Positions 1 to 11,554 of a stretch of DNA of 12,883 bases are shown here, piece by piece. The stretch lies in the UHGV virus genome UHGV-1313942. The stretch is one strand, 5' to 3'. How positions within the stretch are numbered: the stretch's first letter is position 1; every line of letters starts with the position of its first letter. The stretch comes from a virus. The notes beneath the pieces are model-generated. The model saw only the letters and a list, made by a program, of their open reading frames with translations, did no database searches and had not been told where the DNA came from. The position numbers were made by a program, and so were the translations under genes.

Positions 1-9
1 CTCTCCCCC

Positions 10-41
10 AAATAAAAAGGCCTGCGATTACCAGCAGGCCT
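10..41 (-). terminator. Rho-independent terminator downstream of the helicase gene
   Basis: Inverted repeat AGGCCTGC (18-25) / GCAGGCCT (34-41) with 8-nt loop; on the minus strand the hairpin is followed by TTTTTATTT (complement of the A-run at 11-17). Helicase stop codon is at 70-72. Confidence 0.6.
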
Positions 42-69
42 GTTATTAGCTCAGTGATGTAGATGGTCA

Positions 70-1506
70 TCAGAATCCCCCTTTCTTCTTGGACTGCGGT
101 TCCTTGCGTTCACGGCGGCGAATTTCAGCAGACTGTTGGTCTGTGTCATAAATAGCGCCATTTGCCTGAATGCAATACACCGTACCGGTATTGCCATGAC
201 GATTGAGACGAAGGATTAGTTCGGTTTCACCAGGTGGAACACTGTCATCAAAAGCGCCTTCACGATGGATCCCAACCCAATAATCGCAATCCTGTTCAAT
301 CTGCCCTGTATCTCGTGAGTCACTTGGTAATGGGCGTTTATTGGTTCGGCTTTCCAGTGCGCGGTTAAGCTGCGTCAGAAGCACAACAACGCAATCAAGC
401 TCTTTGGCAAGGTTCTTCAGTCCTTTGGTGATCATGCCGTAAGCAAGGTCGTTGCGATCGGCCTTCTCAGCGGTCATTAGTGTCAGGTAATCGACCAGAA
501 TCATGCCAACACATCCTTTTTCTCGCTTGATTCGACGGCTTTCGCTGACGATTTGAGCCAGAGATAATCCCGGCGTGTCGTCGATGTAAAGCATGTCGAT
601 TTCACTCAAGCGATTAGCTGTTTCGATCGCCCTGTTGAAGGCACCATCGTAATCACCCTGATAGCCGTCATCAGCGTCATTTGTCGCCGGAAGGTAAAAA
701 ATATTCGGGTTAACACCAGACTTCTGCCCTACCAGTTTTTCCAGTATCTGATCACCTGGCATTTCAAGGCTGAACATCAAAGCGGGCTTTTTCTCATGCA
801 CTGCGCAATTGATTGCCATCTGGCTGTATAGCGTCGTTTTCCCCATCTTAGGGCGAGCGCCAATGACAAACAGAGAGCCTTTCACCAGACCTTTCGGTGA
901 CAGCATCCTGTCCAGCGATGGGATCCCTGTGCTCATTCCCCGTTGTTCGCCTGATGGGTCAAATCGCTTCTCAAGGTCGCTAACCCAGTCTTCCATGACC
1001 TCACCAAATGAACGAAGGCCGCGACGCGATCCGGTTTTTGCATGGTCTGTCAGTTGCGTGAAAATCGCCTGAATAGCTTCGTACTTCTGCGTTGCAGTCA
1101 TTCCGTTGCGGGAATAGAGCAATTCCGTCGCTTCAGTCATGCGGTTGATGGCGTAGCGTTCCATTGCGGTTTCACGAACCTGCATTGCATAGGCAACGAT
1201 GTTTGCTGCGCTTGGCGTGTTCTTTGCGATCTCAGCGATATAAGCAAAACCGCCAACAGACGCCGTTAACGATTTACGCTCCAGTTCATCGAAAAGCGTC
1301 AGGCCATCTACTGGCTTTTGCTCCCGGTGCATTCTGGTTATTTCTTCGAAAAGGATTTTGTGTGGTCGGCCGTAAAATGAATCAGGCTTCAGCATCGCCA
1401 GAACTTTCCGGACGCGCTCACTGCTGTCATCATCCAGAAGCAATCCACCAATCACCGCCTGCTCTGCCTCGATGCTATGGGGCGGCGCATAAAAATTATC
1501 GGTCAT
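70..1506 (-). CDS. DnaB-family replicative DNA helicase (phage-encoded, P22 gene 12-like role)
   Basis: Track ORF 70..1521; I prefer the ATG at 1506 (GAGG RBS about 9 nt upstream) over the GTG at 1521. N-terminal PHSIEAEQAVIGGLL is a DnaB N-domain signature; Walker A GARPKMGKTT; SLEMP, VDYLTLM and LLTQLNRALESR are RecA-fold helicase motifs that align with E. coli DnaB as I recall it. Overlaps the initiator gene by 11 nt. Confidence 0.9.
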   Translation of the reverse strand: MTDNFYAPPHSIEAEQAVIGGLLLDDDSSERVRKVLAMLKPDSFYGRPHKILFEEITRMHREQKPVDGLTLFDELERKSLTASVGGFAYIAEIAKNTPSAANIVAYAMQVRETAMERYAINRMTEATELLYSRNGMTATQKYEAIQAIFTQLTDHAKTGSRRGLRSFGEVMEDWVSDLEKRFDPSGEQRGMSTGIPSLDRMLSPKGLVKGSLFVIGARPKMGKTTLYSQMAINCAVHEKKPALMFSLEMPGDQILEKLVGQKSGVNPNIFYLPATNDADDGYQGDYDGAFNRAIETANRLSEIDMLYIDDTPGLSLAQIVSESRRIKREKGCVGMILVDYLTLMTAEKADRNDLAYGMITKGLKNLAKELDCVVVLLTQLNRALESRTNKRPLPSDSRDTGQIEQDCDYWVGIHREGAFDDSVPPGETELILRLNRHGNTGTVYCIQANGAIYDTDQQSAEIRRRERKEPQSKKKGGF

Positions 1507-2395
1507 CGTGTTCACCCTCACGAACTTTCAGGTAGGTATTATCGTTAAGCAGGAAATCAAATCCCTTTTTGTGCCAGACGGTTCCGCGCTGATGGTTTGG
1601 GCGCTCTTCGAACATCCATCGGCAATTTTCGCCTACGTAGCTCAAATAATTTCTCCAGTCCTGCATCGTGAAACCATGCCCGTCAAGCTGTCGGGTTATC
1701 ACTCCGGCTTTGCGCCAGAACGTTCGGATCTGGTTTTTACGCTTGTCATTCAGTGCGCGGATTCTTGGCGCTTCAGGAAGGATTTCGTGGTAAGCATCGA
1801 CAACATCCTGACAGCTGACGGAAGGTTTTTTCTTGTCAGACTTTTTGTCTGCTGTGGCACTCTCTAATACGTCAGTATTAGAGATAATATTATTATATTC
1901 TTTATCTGTGGTAATTTGCTGGTAATCTGCTGGTACAGTATTGCTTGCAGGCATTGGTATTGCTGGCTTTGAGGTGGTAATTTGCTGGTAATCTGCTGGT
2001 ACAAAATTTGACTGATAATCGTCATATTTCTCTACCGAGAAAACTGAGAATTTACCGTGTGAAACCCAGTCAATCATGCCGAGTTTTTTGAACTTTCTAA
2101 GCAGGTACTGAACGCGATCTGGTTTGAGTCCTGTTTCAAACGCCAGAGTATTTCTACCGCCAAGTAGCTTCCCTCTGCCTACCAGAATTTCTCCTGCGTC
2201 AGTCATTACATACTCAGGCGTATGCTTTGCTTTGAGGATTAAGTGAACCCACAGATGCGCAGTTTCTGCGTCCTTGTAAAACGGCACATCCATAATTTTA
2301 CGGTGCAGCAAGGCATACCCCTTACCGCTGCTTTGATGCGGTTGTTGTAGCCTTCTGGCCTCTCTGGCTTCGGCTAGATTAGATATGTTACTCAT
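1496..2395 (-). CDS. Replication initiator protein (lambda O / P22 gp18 functional analogue) containing the origin iterons
   Basis: 299-aa ORF immediately upstream of, and overlapping, the helicase gene. Its coding sequence contains directly repeated 11-bp iterons next to an AT-rich stretch, the lambda O/ori-lambda arrangement. Start ATG at 2395 overlaps the stop of the upstream 48-aa ORF. Family of the C-terminal domain not recognised. Confidence 0.75.
1910..2003. repeat. Origin-of-replication iteron array inside the initiator gene
   Basis: Exact 28-bp direct repeat GGTAATTTGCTGGTAATCTGCTGGTACA at 1910-1937 and 1976-2003, each made of two 11-bp iterons GGTAAT(T/C)TGCT; degenerate copies between them (GGTATTGCTGG at 1956-1966). 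Flanked by an AT-rich stretch at about 1876-1905. In protein they encode the duplicated PADYQQITT. Confidence 0.7.
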
Positions 2396-2534
2396 GACCT
2401 TTCTCCTTCTGCATCAGCTTCACTTTTTCCAACTCAGCCCGGAATCGACCAGGCTGCTTGAAGCTGGACAGGAAGCGATCACGTAGTATGTGTTTGTGAA
2501 TTTTGTCCTGGTAAGGACTGAGTTGTTTTGTCAT
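2388..2534 (-). CDS. Small hypothetical protein (48 aa) between cII and the replication initiator
   Basis: Not in the ORF track (below its size cutoff). ATG at 2534 preceded by AGGAG 5 nt upstream; translation [48 protein letters not shown]; stop TAA 2388-2390 overlaps the initiator start codon in an ATGAGTAA arrangement. Confidence 0.5.
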
Positions 2535-2568
2535 AATGACTCCTGTTGATAGATCCAGTCTTTCTACA

Positions 2569-2847
2569 TCAGGCCTCGAAGAATTCGCCGTTCTTCGGGG
2601 CTTTTTCTTTTGTCAGCATTCTGGCTACTTTCTTAGCCAGTTCCGCCAACTCCTCGTCTTCAACACCCCATTCAAGAACAGCCAGAAGCATTCCCATTTT
2701 TGGGATGAAGCTGTCTTTCCATCGCGAAATTTGCGATTCATTAATCCCTAACGCGTCGGCAACCTTTCGCTGACCACGTACAGCAATTCGATTCAGGATG
2801 TTGCTTGTAATTGCATTCGCTTTCTTGCGAGTACTTGTAAGTTGCAT
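2569..2847 (-). CDS. cII: CII-like transcriptional activator (lysogeny establishment)
   Basis: Track ORF 2569..2934 trimmed to the ATG at 2847 (AAGGA RBS about 11 nt upstream); the longer N-terminus would run through the nutR/tR1 region. SQISRWK...[10 protein letters not shown] closely matches lambda CII as I recall it ([25 protein letters not shown]). Position between cro and the replication genes is syntenic. Confidence 0.85.
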
Positions 2848-2905
2848 ATGTAAGTATTTCCTTAACAAATAAGAAGTTATGCGCATCAAATTATGCGCGT
2901 TGTAT

Positions 2906-2949
2906 TCCCGCATTTCGGCGGGAATGAGGACCATGACTGTTAAAGAGCG
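2906..2949 (-). promoter_or_regulatory. nutR antitermination site (boxA + boxB) between cro and cII
   Basis: Minus-strand boxA CGCTCTTTAACA (plus 2938-2949) matches the rrn/lambdoid boxA consensus; boxB hairpin UCCCGC-CGAAAU-GCGGGA (plus 2906-2923) is identical over 18 nt to the boxB upstream of N at 5874-5891. Confidence 0.75.
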
Positions 2950-3284: not shown

Positions 3285-3932
3285 ATGAAAACGATGCATG
3301 AAATTATCGGGGAAAGGATCAAGTCCCTTAGAGAAGCTAAAGGACTTAGCCAGGCTCAATTGGCCAAGCTTTGCGGCTGGGCTGCGCCTTCACGCCTGGG
3401 GAACTACGAGTTAGGAACAAGAAAGGTTAGCGCGGATGACGCGCTGGTTCTTGGGGCGGCACTCGGCGTATCTCCGGCAAAAATAATGTTTGGCGAGGAT
3501 TCAGACGCCGTATTTCGCCAATATGAATACCCGTTATTTTCTTCAGTGCAGGCCGGGCCATTTTCGGAGGTGGGAAGCTACACAGCCAGCGATGCAAAGG
3601 CATGGGTCCCAACGACCACAAAAGCCAGCGAAAAAGCTTTCTGGCTTGAGGTGAAGGGGCATTCAATGACGGCGCCTCAGGGGGTTCGTCCAAGTTTTCC
3701 GGAAGGCATGCTGATACTCGTTGATCCGGCTGAGCCGGTAGAGTCTGGGGATTTCTGCGTGGCTTCTGCAAATGGTGATTCAGAGGCAACGTTCAAGAAG
3801 TATGAGAAGGATGCAGGGGTTAGTTACCTGGTACCTTTAAACCCGGCATATAGAACACTGGATTGCGACCATAGCTGCCGCATCATAGGCAAGGTAGTTA
3901 AGGCGCAGTGGCCTGAAGAGACGTTTGGCTGA
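3285..3932 (+). CDS. cI: CI/C2-type prophage repressor with C-terminal S24 (LexA-like) autopeptidase domain
   Basis: N-terminal [25 protein letters not shown]; Ala-Gly cleavage site in SVQAGPF; S24 catalytic Ser in GHSM and Lys in FKK. The C-terminal half aligns with P22 C2 as I recall it. Start could be the ATG at 3285 (possibly leaderless) or 3294. Confidence 0.9.
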
Positions 3933-4082
3933 TCGGCAAGGTGTTCTGGTCGGCGCATAGCTGGTGAAAAAATTATTTAATGCGGTGTATTGGCTGATTG
4001 TAACCCCATGTAACATCTTGCCGTCACCATTTCGGTGGTTAGATTTTTAATAAAAAAAAACAAATGTATAGCAAGGTTTTTT

Positions 4083-4562
4083 ATGGATAAAATTAATTAC
4101 CCACCCCTGTTTGAGCCAGGGTTCCATGACATGGATGAAGCTGGATTAAAATCGTATTGTGTCGATTGCTTTCCTTCATCATCCAGGCGAGGCATGCTAT
4201 ACTGTAATTTTATACAGCTACTCGAATCTATTCGAGAATTATCTGCTCAATATGGCTGTTTTACAGAAATATGGGTTGATGGTTCATACACCACGTCTAA
4301 ACCAGAGCCTGATGATATTGATATTTTGTTGGTATGTGACTATAGCAATATAAACTCAATACCTGTCATGCTTCGGGGCCGCGTCGATAATTTGCTTGAC
4401 CGAAACTACATCAAACAAAACTACAAAATTGATGTCCTACTACTCATGAAGAATTTAGATGACCCTAACTATGATTATGAGTACTGGCGTAGCTACTGGC
4501 GCGGTTGGTTTGGTTTTGATCGCAGTGAAAACCCGAAAGGGTTAGTGAGGATTTTTTTATGA
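4083..4562 (+). CDS. Hypothetical protein with Pol-beta-superfamily nucleotidyltransferase signature (cargo gene 1)
   Basis: Track ORF 4035..4562 (GTG start) trimmed to the ATG at 4083 (AAGG RBS 6 nt upstream; the extension runs through an A9 tract). Residues 67-81 GSYTTSKPEPDDIDI fit the NTase motif hG[GS]-x9-13-Dh[DE]h (nt 4281-4325). AT-rich relative to flanks. Stop overlaps the next start (ATGA). Confidence 0.6.
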   Translation: MDKINYPPLFEPGFHDMDEAGLKSYCVDCFPSSSRRGMLYCNFIQLLESIRELSAQYGCFTEIWVDGSYTTSKPEPDDIDILLVCDYSNINSIPVMLRGRVDNLLDRNYIKQNYKIDVLLLMKNLDDPNYDYEYWRSYWRGWFGFDRSENPKGLVRIFL

Positions 4563-5491
4563 ATGATAAATCAATGTTTAAAAATTGCGATAAACGCATT
4601 GATTTCATTCAAAAAGAAGTCGATGCAATGAAGCAAAACAAAACCAGGTCCTTTGCTGACATGCTTCTTTATCGCTCCATGGATTCTCATCTGAGCGATT
4701 TGAAGGCCGAAAAATTAAAGCAAGATAGTCGGCACCCACTTATCGATTTTTTTGAGCTGCGGCTGAAAGGCTCTGAGGTTGACTTTGGCTCTATTCCTTT
4801 AGAGCTGCTTGGGGCTATTTCAACAAATCTTGCAGCGCTAATACAAAGAGCAACACACAAAATTGCCTCAGGCAAGGACTCAAAAAAAGTTCCCTACGAC
4901 GTGAAAAGCTCCTTAAACCTCAGGCTGGCTGATTTATCCCCTGGGTCTACAAAATTGGGCGTCACCTTCTCTACAGGAATAGCAGAATTAGTAGAAACAG
5001 TACCCAGCAAGGCTGTAAAAGGCATATTCGATTTGTTGTTAAGCGATGACGACAACAACTTCATGAATCACGTCGCTGAAATTGGATACAATTCCACTGT
5101 AAGCCTTAAGAGAATCGTAGAGGAATGCGATAAACACAACTTAACATTTGATGCAAGTTGGACCGGTCCATTTAGTAATGGCACCAAGGTGGCAACTATT
5201 GACTCCAATAAAATTAAGTACTTGGTGAGTAGACTTACATCAACCATTTCATCCCCTCCCATTACTGAAACGGTTACAGGCGAACTGGTCGTTCTATCCA
5301 AATATGGGAAGCTGGAGCTTGATGTTGGTGGTGAACATTTAAAGGCTTCCTATCCGATTGAAATGCTAGATTTAATACAAAAAAAACACAAGGTCGGACA
5401 GATTGTTTCTCTTTTAGTGGAGACTACTGAGATTCACAATGATCGCATAGGTCTGTACCGTAAAAACCATCTTGTTAAATCGGTTCTTTAA
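4559..5491 (+). CDS. Hypothetical 310-aa protein, no family recognised (cargo gene 2)
   Basis: Start ATG overlaps the upstream stop (ATGA at 4559-4562), implying translational coupling; AT-rich; followed directly by an intrinsic terminator. No transmembrane segment or catalytic motif that I recognise. Confidence 0.6.
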   Translation: MNDKSMFKNCDKRIDFIQKEVDAMKQNKTRSFADMLLYRSMDSHLSDLKAEKLKQDSRHPLIDFFELRLKGSEVDFGSIPLELLGAISTNLAALIQRATHKIASGKDSKKVPYDVKSSLNLRLADLSPGSTKLGVTFSTGIAELVETVPSKAVKGIFDLLLSDDDNNFMNHVAEIGYNSTVSLKRIVEECDKHNLTFDASWTGPFSNGTKVATIDSNKIKYLVSRLTSTISSPPITETVTGELVVLSKYGKLELDVGGEHLKASYPIEMLDLIQKKHKVGQIVSLLVETTEIHNDRIGLYRKNHLVKSVL

Positions 5492-5498
5492 TATCTCA

Positions 5499-5523
5499 CC
5501 CGGCCACCGCGCCGGGTTTTTTA
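5499..5523 (+). terminator. Rho-independent terminator ending the cI-cargo transcription unit (t_imm analogue)
   Basis: Stem CCCGGC (5499-5504) / GCCGGG (5511-5516), 6-nt loop, followed by TTTTTTATT (5517-5525); begins 8 nt after the stop at 5489-5491. Confidence 0.8.
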
Positions 5524-5735
5524 TTGTCCGCCGATCACTATCAGGACAGCACCTGCCAGCCGGTCCAAACAATTGATTAAATTACTATAATTCTTAATAC
5601 AACTCCCATATCCCGCCATCTCGCCACCACCACCTTCGCTCGTTTTTCGAACTTTTCAGCACCCATCCTGCTGTTGCCACCGACTTAAGTAAGCAAAACC
5701 ATCGCGGGTAAAACTATTTACACAAAAAAATCATA

Positions 5736-5803
5736 CACATAACGTGTCACACCTTTATTTTACACATTTTGTGATTGACCATTAAATCACAATATGTGAC
5801 TAT
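5736..5803 (+). promoter_or_regulatory. OL/PL region: leftward early promoter with repressor operators
   Basis: Candidate PL: -35 TTGACC (5775-5780), 17-bp spacer, -10 GACTAT (5798-5803). Operator-like 12-mers CACATTTTGTGA (5763-5774) and CACAATATGTGA (5788-5799) match the OR site CACAATTTGTGA; weaker CACATAACGTGT at 5736-5747. Sites are spaced about 25-27 bp apart. Confidence 0.65.
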
Positions 5804-5849
5804 CATTTCCATCAGCAGGACGCTGGTAGCCAAACGGAACATATTGGCA

Positions 5850-5891
5850 GGCTCTTTAACATTGATGGGATTGTCCCGCCGAAATGCGGGA
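5850..5891 (+). promoter_or_regulatory. nutL antitermination site (boxA + boxB)
   Basis: boxA GCTCTTTAACA (5851-5861) and boxB hairpin TCCCGC-CGAAAT-GCGGGA (5874-5891); both identical to the minus-strand nutR elements at 2906-2949. Lies downstream of PL and upstream of N. Confidence 0.75.
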
Positions 5892-6249
5892 ACTGAGTTT
5901 AACAAAACAGGAGGTGCCGTAATGGTGCACTAACGCGGTTAGACCGCAGCCGAAAGGCAATGCAGCAGTAATGATGCTGCCCCGAGTCGCGTAATGGCGA
6001 GCAGGTTTAGCAGACCGATGTGAGGGTAAATAAGGGAACATGCTCCGGAAAGGCAGCGCGAATGCCAGACGCGCACCGGTTATCAGCGGCTAATAAGCGA
6101 CAGAGACTCAAGGGCATGAGCGCGCTCACTGCGAGAGTGTGAGTCAAAGAGTAGTTGGCTTTGGGGTGACGTGAAGTGCAGCTGCACGACGGCAACCGGA
6201 AGATAAGCACCCGGCGCGTCACCGCCAAAGTCAATCATCGGAGGTCAAC

Positions 6250-6522
6250 ATGACAGTAGTCATTACATATCTGGCTGACGATAACGCCAGAAATCGCCGC
6301 AGAGCACGCAGACAGGCTCAACGTGAACAGGCAATGCAAGAGCAGCGACTGGCACGAAAAATTGCGCTAAAGCTCTCTGGTTGCGTCAGAGCAGATAAAG
6401 CAGCATCACTCGGAAGCCTTTGCTGCAAGGAAGAAGATGAACGCAGTGGAAGTATTTGCCTGCCAAACGTAGCCATTTACGCGGCAGGATACCGGAAATC
6501 AAAACAACTGACAGCGAGGTAA
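6250..6522 (+). CDS. N: N-family transcription antiterminator (P22 gene 24-like)
   Basis: 90 aa; N-terminal arginine-rich motif NARNRRRARRQAQREQ typical of boxB-binding N proteins; first gene downstream of PL/nutL; GGAGG RBS 7 nt upstream. C-terminal ...LPNVAIYAAGYRKSKQLTAR resembles my recollection of P22 gp24. Confidence 0.8.
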   Translation: MTVVITYLADDNARNRRRARRQAQREQAMQEQRLARKIALKLSGCVRADKAASLGSLCCKEEDERSGSICLPNVAIYAAGYRKSKQLTAR

Positions 6523-6812: not shown

Positions 6813-7262
6813 ATGGAAGAACAAGCAAACAAGATTCTCGTAGAACTACTGCAAAAAGCCAGTAATGGAATAGACGCGGCTGTTTCATTCAGCCAGGCAC
6901 AGATTCCTGATGTTGTTCATCAGTTGCTGCTATGGAATATGGTTGACAGTCTGATTAAAACATTAATGGCCATTCTAACAATCCCACTGGTTTTCTGGTT
7001 TATGAAGAAGCAGTGCCAAAGAGTTGAGACAGGTAAAATCGGTGATGAAGGATATTCATGGGAGAAAGGAAATCCCAAATACATGCCGACAATGGTTTGG
7101 GATAGCAAAGGTGATATTAATCTTCTTATCATGCCATTGGTTGTAGTTTTGACTCTGTGGGGGATTTTTATTATTGGTGTAGTAACCAATATGACTTGGT
7201 TAAAAATTTGGCTGGCCCCAAAGCTTTACCTTATCGAATATGCAGCATCATTGGTTAAGTAA
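6813..7262 (+). CDS. Hypothetical membrane protein with two predicted TM helices (possible superinfection-exclusion-type cargo)
   Basis: 149 aa; hydrophobic segments LIKTLMAILTIPLVFWFM and LLIMPLVVVLTLWGIFIIGVV; GAGGTG RBS; AT-rich; followed directly by a terminator. Occupies the post-N position where lambdoid phages carry ral/sieB-type accessory genes. Function is inference only. Confidence 0.55.
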   Translation: MEEQANKILVELLQKASNGIDAAVSFSQAQIPDVVHQLLLWNMVDSLIKTLMAILTIPLVFWFMKKQCQRVETGKIGDEGYSWEKGNPKYMPTMVWDSKGDINLLIMPLVVVLTLWGIFIIGVVTNMTWLKIWLAPKLYLIEYAASLVK

Positions 7263-10698: not shown

Positions 10699-10859
10699 GA
10701 GGTCTTGCATACAATCCCGGCATTCTTCCGGCAGAAATGATTATTCGCCAACGCGTAAAGCCAATGCCATCGAGAGAGGAATTGCTTAAGAGAAATTCTT
10801 TTCCATCAGTGAATCAAAACAAGTATCTGAATGCGATGTTGCGGAGTGGGAAGAAATGA
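10695..10859 (+). CDS. Small hypothetical protein (54 aa)
   Basis: Not in the track. ATG overlaps the upstream stop and its stop overlaps the downstream start (both ATGA); [54 protein letters not shown]. Confidence 0.45.
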
Positions 10860-11554
10860 AACAAATGACACTAATTGAGATGGATGGATTTCTGAAAGGT
10901 AAATGCATCCCACGAGATTTAAAGGTTAACGAAACAAACGCTGAATATCTGGTGCGTAAATTTGCTGAGATTGAATCAAAACTGGAAACGGCGTTGCGGG
11001 AGTGTCGTTCTGCTGGAATAACGATTGATAACCTTGAGGCCAAGTGCGCAGCGCTGGCTGCTGATAACAAGAAAGCAATGGAGGCAATGAGGCAGGCAGA
11101 TGCAGCCGTTAAGTTGGCACACGAGAAGTTTTCGGCGCTGACTGCGGAGAATGCGGGGATGAAGGCGACATGTGAGGACCGTCGAACGTTCATTATGAAC
11201 GGTGTGCAACTGGGTTATATCAAGGTTCCTACAGTAGATACAGACCCGGCACTTGATACCATTCGTGTTGCTGTATCACCACAAGAACCAACCCCAGCCA
11301 CCGACGCTTTCTTGGCTGAAGTGAAGACTGAAGCACGCAAGGAGGGCGCTTACTTTGTTGCGAACAGAATGCTGGCTGCCTGGGAAGCTGGTTTTATTGA
11401 TGATACTGCGAAGAACGCCGCTGATATTGCCCGGATGATTCTTACCTCTACTGAGTTTATGGCTAATGCGCCGGAAGGCGATTTTGACCGCTCATTCTCT
11501 GATGGCGTACTCGAAGACATCGCTGCCCAGCTTCGCAAAGGAGTGCAGTCATGA
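10856..11554 (+). CDS. Hypothetical phage protein, probably coiled-coil in its N-terminal half
   Basis: 232 aa; Ala/Glu/Lys-rich heptad-like segment (about residues 30-100); coupled to flanking genes by ATGA overlaps. Confidence 0.6.

Follow-up and report, generated by a model that had tools for sequence, protein, structure and literature searches.

In the type VII (HEPN/MNT) toxin–antitoxin (TA) systems, a small nucleotidyltransferase (NTase) of the polymerase beta (Pol-beta) type, MNT, is encoded first and is coupled to one partner, a HEPN RNase, which MNT AMPylates. NTases are also known as toxins, i.e. AbiEii and MenT; in the AbiE and MenAT systems, which are carried by mobile elements, abortive infection or TA function relies on an NTase. 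In phage lambda, the exclusion genes rexA and rexB follow cI within the pRM transcript. Hailong (HalA/HalB) and Clover (CloA/CloB) comprise two genes each, one of them for an accessory Pol-beta NTase (HalB, CloB); the products of these NTases restrain a toxic partner (an ion channel and the HD-domain dGTPase CloA, respectively), catalytic mutants are toxic, and the nucleotide signals made are free or self-linked, the partner not being modified (PMC13434031, PMC12265719). The phage defence candidate (PDC) systems are 145 candidates that were picked out because they lie within BREX, DISARM or type I RM systems (10.1101/2024.01.29.577857). Deletion of one of these, PDC-M63AB, in E. coli NILS69 caused no change against 10 virulent phages (PMC12409345).

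The gene pair orfA–orfB analysed here is located in a stretch of 12,883 nucleotides (the window) of the virus genome UHGV-1313942. The pair represents PADLOC candidate PDC-M63 (A+B), with both genes adjacent and matched over full length; no sequence-level difference to PDC-M63/DUF6932 was detected, and the catalogue entry carries no function. Nothing on function was found in the literature on DUF6932, the RefSeq accessions, or phage mEpX1.

As in HEPN/MNT, the first gene codes for a small Pol-beta NTase that is coupled to one partner, and MNT proteins are the nearest solved structures of orfA; in contrast to MNT, orfA carries an additional segment at the N-terminus and a tail of its own (RSYWRGWFGF) and scores below the threshold for NTP_transf_2, and orfB is not a HEPN protein. 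The layout of two genes with an accessory Pol-beta NTase is shared with Hailong and Clover, whereas orfB, unlike their partners, is soluble and has no HD domain. With AbiE and MenAT the pair may share the NTase-based logic on a mobile element, but orfA is about half the size of the DUF1814 NTase toxins, has no AbiEii match in PADLOC (E up to 1) or in Pfam, and has no AbiEi-type or COG5340-type antitoxin beside it. In comparison to the CD-NTases/SMODS of CBASS, orfA lacks the C-terminal lobe, and neither a Cap effector nor a SAVED domain is present. The slot, i.e. downstream of cI, in the pRM transcript, and before the terminator and pL–N, is that of lambda rexA–rexB; however, no relation in sequence, fold or family to RexAB was detected, and orfB is not a membrane protein, as RexB is.

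Prophage setting of the cassette

The window represents a mosaic lambdoid prophage with genes for a DnaB-type helicase, CII, Cro, cI, N, RecT, and Ea22. The features around orfA–orfB are the following (window positions):

3285..3932, plus strand: cI-type repressor, HTH and S24 peptidase (Peptidase_S24, 3.1e-26; HTH_31/HTH_3)
3966..5499, plus strand: mobile cargo cassette ('moron') between cI and the pRM terminator (homology breaks; composition)
4020..4039, plus strand: weak terminator-like hairpin with T-rich run, upstream of orfA (consensus scan; 6-bp stem, 3 GC pairs)
4083..4562, plus strand: orfA, 159 aa, minimal Pol-beta-fold nucleotidyltransferase (DUF6932, PDC-M63A, PHROG 9194)
4559..5491, plus strand: orfB, 310 aa, soluble (PDC-M63B, PHROG 6603)
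5498..5527, plus strand: Rho-independent terminator of the cI–orfA–orfB transcript (7-bp stem, 6 GC pairs, then TTTTTATTGT)
between about 5730 and 5810: pL/OL (homology to VT1-Sakai, where the operators and pL are annotated)
6250..6522, plus strand: antiterminator N, on the far side of the slot (Pfam N_peptide, 5.1e-15)

The lysogenic transcript with orfA–orfB begins with the repressor gene and, since the cargo is located inside the cI (pRM) transcript, both proteins are expected to be made in lysogens together with cI. The hairpin of the terminator itself spans 5498-5517, and the element is homologous to the 'rho-independent terminator for pRM transcript' of VT1-Sakai. The weaker hairpin at 4020-4039 could attenuate read-through from pRM or could be left over from regulation of the cassette itself. 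No RNA component was found in 3800-6300 by Rfam and tandem-repeat scans.

The cassette has a GC content of about 37-43%, compared with about 50-54% in its flanks. The cI DNA is 99.4% identical to cI of VT1-Sakai and mEpX1. With VT1-Sakai the window also shares the terminator, the operators and pL, but the homology between the two ends at 3965 and restarts at 5500. A single unrelated 183-aa gene (H0053) occupies the VT1-Sakai slot in place of orfA–orfB (L093, 2182-3120). The cassette is found in identical form (window 3906-5520) behind a different repressor in E. coli R18, and as an allele of 55-61% identity in the same slot behind the repressor of a Rac-like prophage; the window allele itself follows repressors of nine clusters, with less than 70% identity between clusters. 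The region from cI to the pRM terminator represents an exchange point. In 58 of 78 viral loci, a same-strand gene for an HTH-S24 repressor ends 57-584 bp upstream; for the more distant viral loci (L157-L176), no cI-like neighbour was detected.

The exact window allele was found in 18 of 5426 complete E. coli genomes, and the pair shares 99.7% identity with two genes of phage mEpX1 (L001) that are annotated as hypothetical. The stretch from cI to pL is shared with mEpX1 at 99.4% identity; the window is nevertheless distinct from mEpX1, as the replication genes differ. The replication module of the window (1-2927) is of the DnaB-helicase type and 98.5% identical to that of the E. coli R18 prophage, whereas mEpX1 has O/DnaC.

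Two other open reading frames of the prophage had no Pfam match. The one at 6813-7262, downstream of N, codes for 149 aa with a strongly hydrophobic segment at residues 104-124 (19-residue hydropathy, 2.69), and may represent another membrane-bound accessory or exclusion protein of the prophage; the other (10856-11554, 232 aa) is located in the early-left region.

The nucleotidyltransferase-type protein orfA

The reading frame of orfA begins with ATG at 4083 and its stop codon is located at 4560-4562, and public annotations give it as a 480-bp gene. An alternative GTG start at 4035 is unlikely; the homologues begin at the MDK/MEK position. The positions within orfA that are referred to below are:

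4281..4325, plus strand: NTase motif G67-S68-x9-D78-I-D80-I (direct reading; invariant in homologues)
4431..4433, plus strand: codon of Asp117, candidate third catalytic carboxylate (conservation; strand 116-123 of the predicted model)
4488..4541, plus strand: C-terminal motif R136-S-Y-W-R-G-W-F-G-F-x-R-x-E-x-x-K-G153 (homologue conservation)

The plus strand at 4281-4325 reads ggt tca tac acc acg tct aaa cca gag cct gat gat att gat att, i.e. codons 67-81, for G67 S68 Y T T S K P E P D77 D78 I79 D80 I81, followed by L-L-V; it comprises a GS turn and two aspartates of the metal-binding type (D78, D80). The first-pass annotation had matched this stretch to the pattern hG[GS]-x9-13-Dh[DE]h. The part G[GS]-x9-D-h-D-h is present as claimed, but the hydrophobic residue before G67 is not: this position is taken by Asp66, which is kept in 95% of the homologues and represents a family-specific departure from the strict hG[GS].

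The bare pattern is only moderately rare: 1.5% of shuffled orfA sequences contained its relaxed form, as did 19 of the 3019 unrelated ORFs. Among the 97 stop-to-stop frames (50 aa or longer) of the window, it was present in orfA alone. The motif is therefore significant not because of the pattern but because it is conserved in homologues, 85 of 89 of which contain the relaxed form. Across 64 aligned homologues (down to 34% identity), G67, S68, T71, K73, P76, D78, and D80 are invariant, as are G13, F30, R36, W64, S137-Y-W-R-G141, F143, and E149; D117 is nearly invariant (99%). The motif residues and D117 are conserved at or above 90% across many phyla. Asp117 is placed on the next strand of the predicted model and would presumably be located near D78 and D80 in space.

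The Trp/Tyr-rich tail that had been pointed out is present (YEYWRSYWRGWFGFDR, residues 132-147). The family-specific C-terminal motif (R136 to G153) is invariant or near-invariant in close homologues, and W139, G144, R147, K152, and G153 are conserved at 90% or more across phyla; it may form a substrate- or partner-binding surface.

The sequences flanking the NTase motif had been described as without a match; the whole protein, however, belongs to Pfam DUF6932 (PF22014; 87.3 bits, cut-off 27, residues 8-157) and to PADLOC PDC-M63A (E 1.8e-41 over 1-158). DUF6932 was matched by all 64 of the aligned homologues. In PHROGs, orfA belongs to PHROG 9194, a family of 'unknown function', and neither orfA nor orfB was matched in a search of NCBIfam. 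Below threshold, the 64 DUF6932 members matched Polbeta (46), DNA_pol_B_palm (41), and NTP_transf_2 (38); for the latter (PF01909) the best E was 8.8e-06 among the 38 homologues, below the curated threshold, with orfA of the window itself unmatched. In the profile of the orfA family, GS...DxD is aligned with GSFRRGAESSGDMDVLL of DNA polymerase beta. A PDB sequence search with this profile gave nothing significant (polymerase beta, E 0.17-0.7), and no HalB or CloB chain was among the matches.

The structure of orfA was predicted with high confidence (pLDDT 95.8), and the best matches of the model to solved structures are Pol-beta-fold NTases only, with MNT antitoxins among them (8xeh_E, 7ae2_B, 5yep_A). 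The Pol-beta-type reading of the first-pass annotation is hence corroborated by the invariant G67, S68, D78, and D80, by D117, by the sub-threshold Pfam matches, by the polymerase beta alignment, and by the fold. That the motif arose by chance in a protein that is not an enzyme is very improbable: the frequency of the bare pattern in shuffled orfA sequences (about 1.5%) and the missing hydrophobic residue before Gly67 would fit with chance, but not the conservation of the motif residues and of a third acid across phyla, nor an NTase fold in the model. Apparently, orfA represents a minimal nucleotidyltransferase with a Pol-beta fold that belongs to DUF6932 and is competent for catalysis.

DUF6932 is a large family, with 3691 representatives at 50% identity (E up to 0.001), or 1419 at E up to 1e-10; nearly all of the best 150 of the 3691 relatives are stand-alone proteins of about 150 aa. 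The orfA protein is acidic (pI 4.7; family median, 5.05). In two fusion proteins of metagenomic or genomic origin, P0397 (389 aa) and P0402 (355 aa), an M78 metallopeptidase of the ImmA/IrrE type (HEXXH) is followed by a C-terminal DUF6932 domain; in the only readable context of such a fusion (L096, 5001-6068), no B-type gene follows.

The partner orfB and its coupling to orfA

The start of orfB overlaps the stop of orfA by 4 bp (ATGA). Relatives of orfA (A) were taken from metagenomes and 80 species genomes (89 loci), with taxa including Enterobacterales, Bacteroidota, Bacillota, Nitrospirota, Acidobacteriota, Verrucomicrobiota, and Parcubacteria. A full-length relative of orfB (B) is located directly downstream of A in 75 of the 89 genome and metagenome loci, and nearly all of the others are accounted for by a contig end or a frameshift; for viral contigs (n=80), the number is 78 of the 79 that have room for B. 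The partner of an A with 40% identity is itself homologous to orfB (23% identity, E 2e-16). The one clear exception is L089 (6001-9026), in which A directly precedes a type I restriction hsdR gene (ResIII, EcoEI_R_C) with no B. The A–B pair is near-obligate.

Among the neighbours in 72 genomes, there was no conserved third gene and no strong defence-island signal; the immediate neighbours are heterogeneous and comprise resolvases, integrases, few RM and TA genes, and housekeeping genes. In one locus (L002), the pair adjoins a type I RM system. Together, orfA and orfB represent a self-contained, horizontally mobile, translationally coupled two-gene module.

Two features of orfB are referred to below:

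4943..4948, plus strand: codons of Gly129-Ser130, candidate modification or active site (98% conserved; putative role)
5255..5488, plus strand: C-terminal OB-fold domain, about residues 233-310 (predicted model)

All six PDC-M63B models of PADLOC matched orfB (best E 7.5e-45, over 23-304), and in PHROGs it belongs to PHROG 6603, a family of 'unknown function'. No Pfam family was found for orfB, and no recurrent family among 54 B homologues and 39 B cores. The B proteins always have a length of about 305-326 aa and no fusions; a search with the B-core profile for fusions or relatives, such as proteins like PDC-M32A, yielded only B proteins of 300-326 aa and fragments below this length, and none of these had a Pfam domain. 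PDB sequence searches gave nothing significant with the B profile (a chance-level SAVED match, E 0.82) and only designed helical proteins with the B-core profile. No known toxic domain or recognisable catalytic domain was found in orfB. The protein is soluble, with no hydrophobic segment (maximum 19-residue hydropathy, 1.38).

The model of orfB (pLDDT 80) comprises two N-terminal helices, an alpha/beta core with the strand order beta-alpha-beta-beta-alpha-beta, and a C-terminal OB fold (beta1-3, helix, beta4-5). The B family is acidic, the OB part included, and this family-wide acidic pI of the OB part speaks against the idea that the fold binds nucleic acids. An argument from charge for a toxin and an antitoxin (acidic A, basic B) holds for the window allele and fails family-wide.

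The first-pass annotation had seen no obvious Rx4-6H motif in the partner and had considered a canonical HEPN/MNT pair as not supported by eye. One R-x4-H string does exist (R39-SMDS-H44, in an N-terminal helix), but it is unconserved in the wider B family, and no HEPN match was found in Pfam or PADLOC. The MNT antitoxins among the structural matches of orfA (8xeh_E, 7ae2_B, 5yep_A) and the NTase gene being first in order would suit a canonical HEPN/MNT pair; orfB, however, is not all-helical, with mixed alpha/beta structure, strands throughout and the C-terminal OB fold, and we regard such a pair as highly improbable, in agreement with the earlier conclusion.

The only conserved positions among 176 distinct B sequences are L48, D/E63 (99%), R68 (88%), P80, G129, S130 (98%), G176, and W201, and the N- and C-terminal parts are poorly conserved. 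Ser130 is the sole invariant nucleophile of the family. Gly129-Ser130 is located in the least confident hairpin of the model (pLDDT below 50 at residues 125-129), and Ser130 may be a mere structural turn residue.

A Foldseek search with the orfB model gave nothing at E up to 0.001. Residues 59-232 (4733-5254) had weak matches to class III adenylyl/guanylyl cyclase and to the Cas10 palm (best E, 0.011), for which the invariant Gly-Ser hairpin of B would coincide with the acidic hairpin of these domains. As a lead, which comes from the weak Foldseek matches and the strand order, the B core might be a degenerate palm or cyclase domain; the sequence searches with B and the B core gave no support for this. 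The most conserved part of orfB, residues 62-146 (4742-4996), weakly resembles the N-terminus of PDC-M32A (E 3.4e-05), another PADLOC candidate, which was matched by 11 of 39 B family members; this similarity suggests a domain common to B and PDC-M32A.

Putative role of the pair

The intact NTase-type site, the obligate coupling to B, and the location in the cI operon lead us to infer a lysogen-expressed module of the exclusion or TA type. We give slightly better than an even chance to a use of orfA–orfB as a prophage-encoded exclusion, abortive-infection, or TA-like module; that the explanation as a whole is correct, i.e. a catalytically competent NTase that acts with orfB in a lysogen-expressed, mobile exclusion/TA-like module, appears somewhat short of even. 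In favour of defence, the pair adjoins a type I RM system in L002, and A is located directly before hsdR in L089; the null result for the PDC-M63AB deletion in strain NILS69 and an orfB without a known toxic domain stand against this reading.

As for the mechanism, we tentatively propose, by analogy, that an MNT-like orfA nucleotidylates orfB and thereby controls its activity. With an NTP and the putative metal site of D78, D80, and D117, orfA would place a nucleotide covalently on orfB, for which Ser130 in its flexible hairpin would be the best candidate acceptor; the nucleotide would control the activity of orfB, and infection would upset the balance of orfA and orfB such that orfB is released. 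Covalent nucleotidylation is favoured because the nearest structures of orfA are MNT proteins and because orfA appears too small to hold two nucleotides alone, and Ser130 is favoured as acceptor because it is the sole invariant nucleophile of B and lies in a flexible loop. We infer enzymatic activity, acceptor, direction of control, and defence role alike. A more specific version, in which the DUF6932 transferase nucleotidylates Ser130 of orfB, or uses this residue to prime a short oligonucleotide, and in which loss or reversal of the mark on infection activates the effector, is doubtful.

Alternatively, orfA could be an accessory transferase that generates a signal in the manner of Hailong and Clover, i.e. 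a constitutive nucleotide or oligonucleotide that is bound by orfB non-covalently, via the OB fold or the conserved core, and that silences orfB until phage infection depletes the signal or competes with it. HalB and CloB, whose products restrain a toxic partner and whose catalytic mutants are toxic, set the precedent (PMC13434031, PMC12265719). The C-terminal OB fold of orfB, of the type that binds single-stranded nucleic acids, and the two-gene layout and mobile context would fit as well; nevertheless, we consider this reading unlikely. A role of orfA as the toxin, in the manner of MenT and AbiEii, would turn the pair around: orfA would add nucleotides to tRNA acceptor ends or to other nucleic-acid 3' ends and halt growth on infection, with orfB as antitoxin or sensor. 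NTase toxins of this kind are established, the conserved aromatic and basic C-terminal motif of orfA could bind the end of a nucleic acid, a sensor that diversifies would fit with the poor conservation of B in its N- and C-terminal parts, and A occurs without B when fused to the M78 peptidase and once beside hsdR. However, orfA did not match any AbiEii model of PADLOC, is half the size of the DUF1814 toxins and acidic (also as a family), and has MNT antitoxins, not toxins, as nearest structural neighbours, and this reading, too, we hold to be rather unlikely. The two readings, a nucleotide signal and orfA as toxin, are of similar weight to covalent nucleotidylation.

Finally, orfA–orfB might serve lysogeny or induction as an accessory, or prophage fitness in another way, co-regulated with the repressor and with no part in defence. 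The ImmA/IrrE-type peptidases are a family known to cleave the repressors of elements, and the fusion of the NTase domain to such a peptidase would fit with this reading, as would the strict location beside repressor genes in enterobacterial phages. The deletion in NILS69 was negative for defence (PMC12409345), and lambda RexA itself is reported to modulate the switch as well (PMC11077077). However, the pair is also common outside prophages and in phyla without cI-type neighbours, including beside type I RM, and the distant viral loci L157-L176 are without a detectable cI-like neighbour, which makes a non-defence role improbable.

DUF6932 is a large family, present in many phyla and many phages. 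In enterobacterial prophages, its genes are part of the repressor transcript, where superinfection-exclusion genes are classically found. The pair is already catalogued, with no function assigned and a partner of no recognisable family; if no phenotype ever emerges, orfA–orfB would be a well-defined, ordinary prophage cargo. If control by nucleotidylation or by a nucleotide signal holds true, orfB would represent a new partner type beside those of MNT/HEPN, Hailong, and Clover, and the gene pair of many prophages of E. coli, Klebsiella, Salmonella, and Serratia would have a function. Nucleotidylation of Ser130, if true, would represent a new mechanistic class of NTase-controlled immunity, located in the rexAB slot of lambdoid prophages and present in many phyla.
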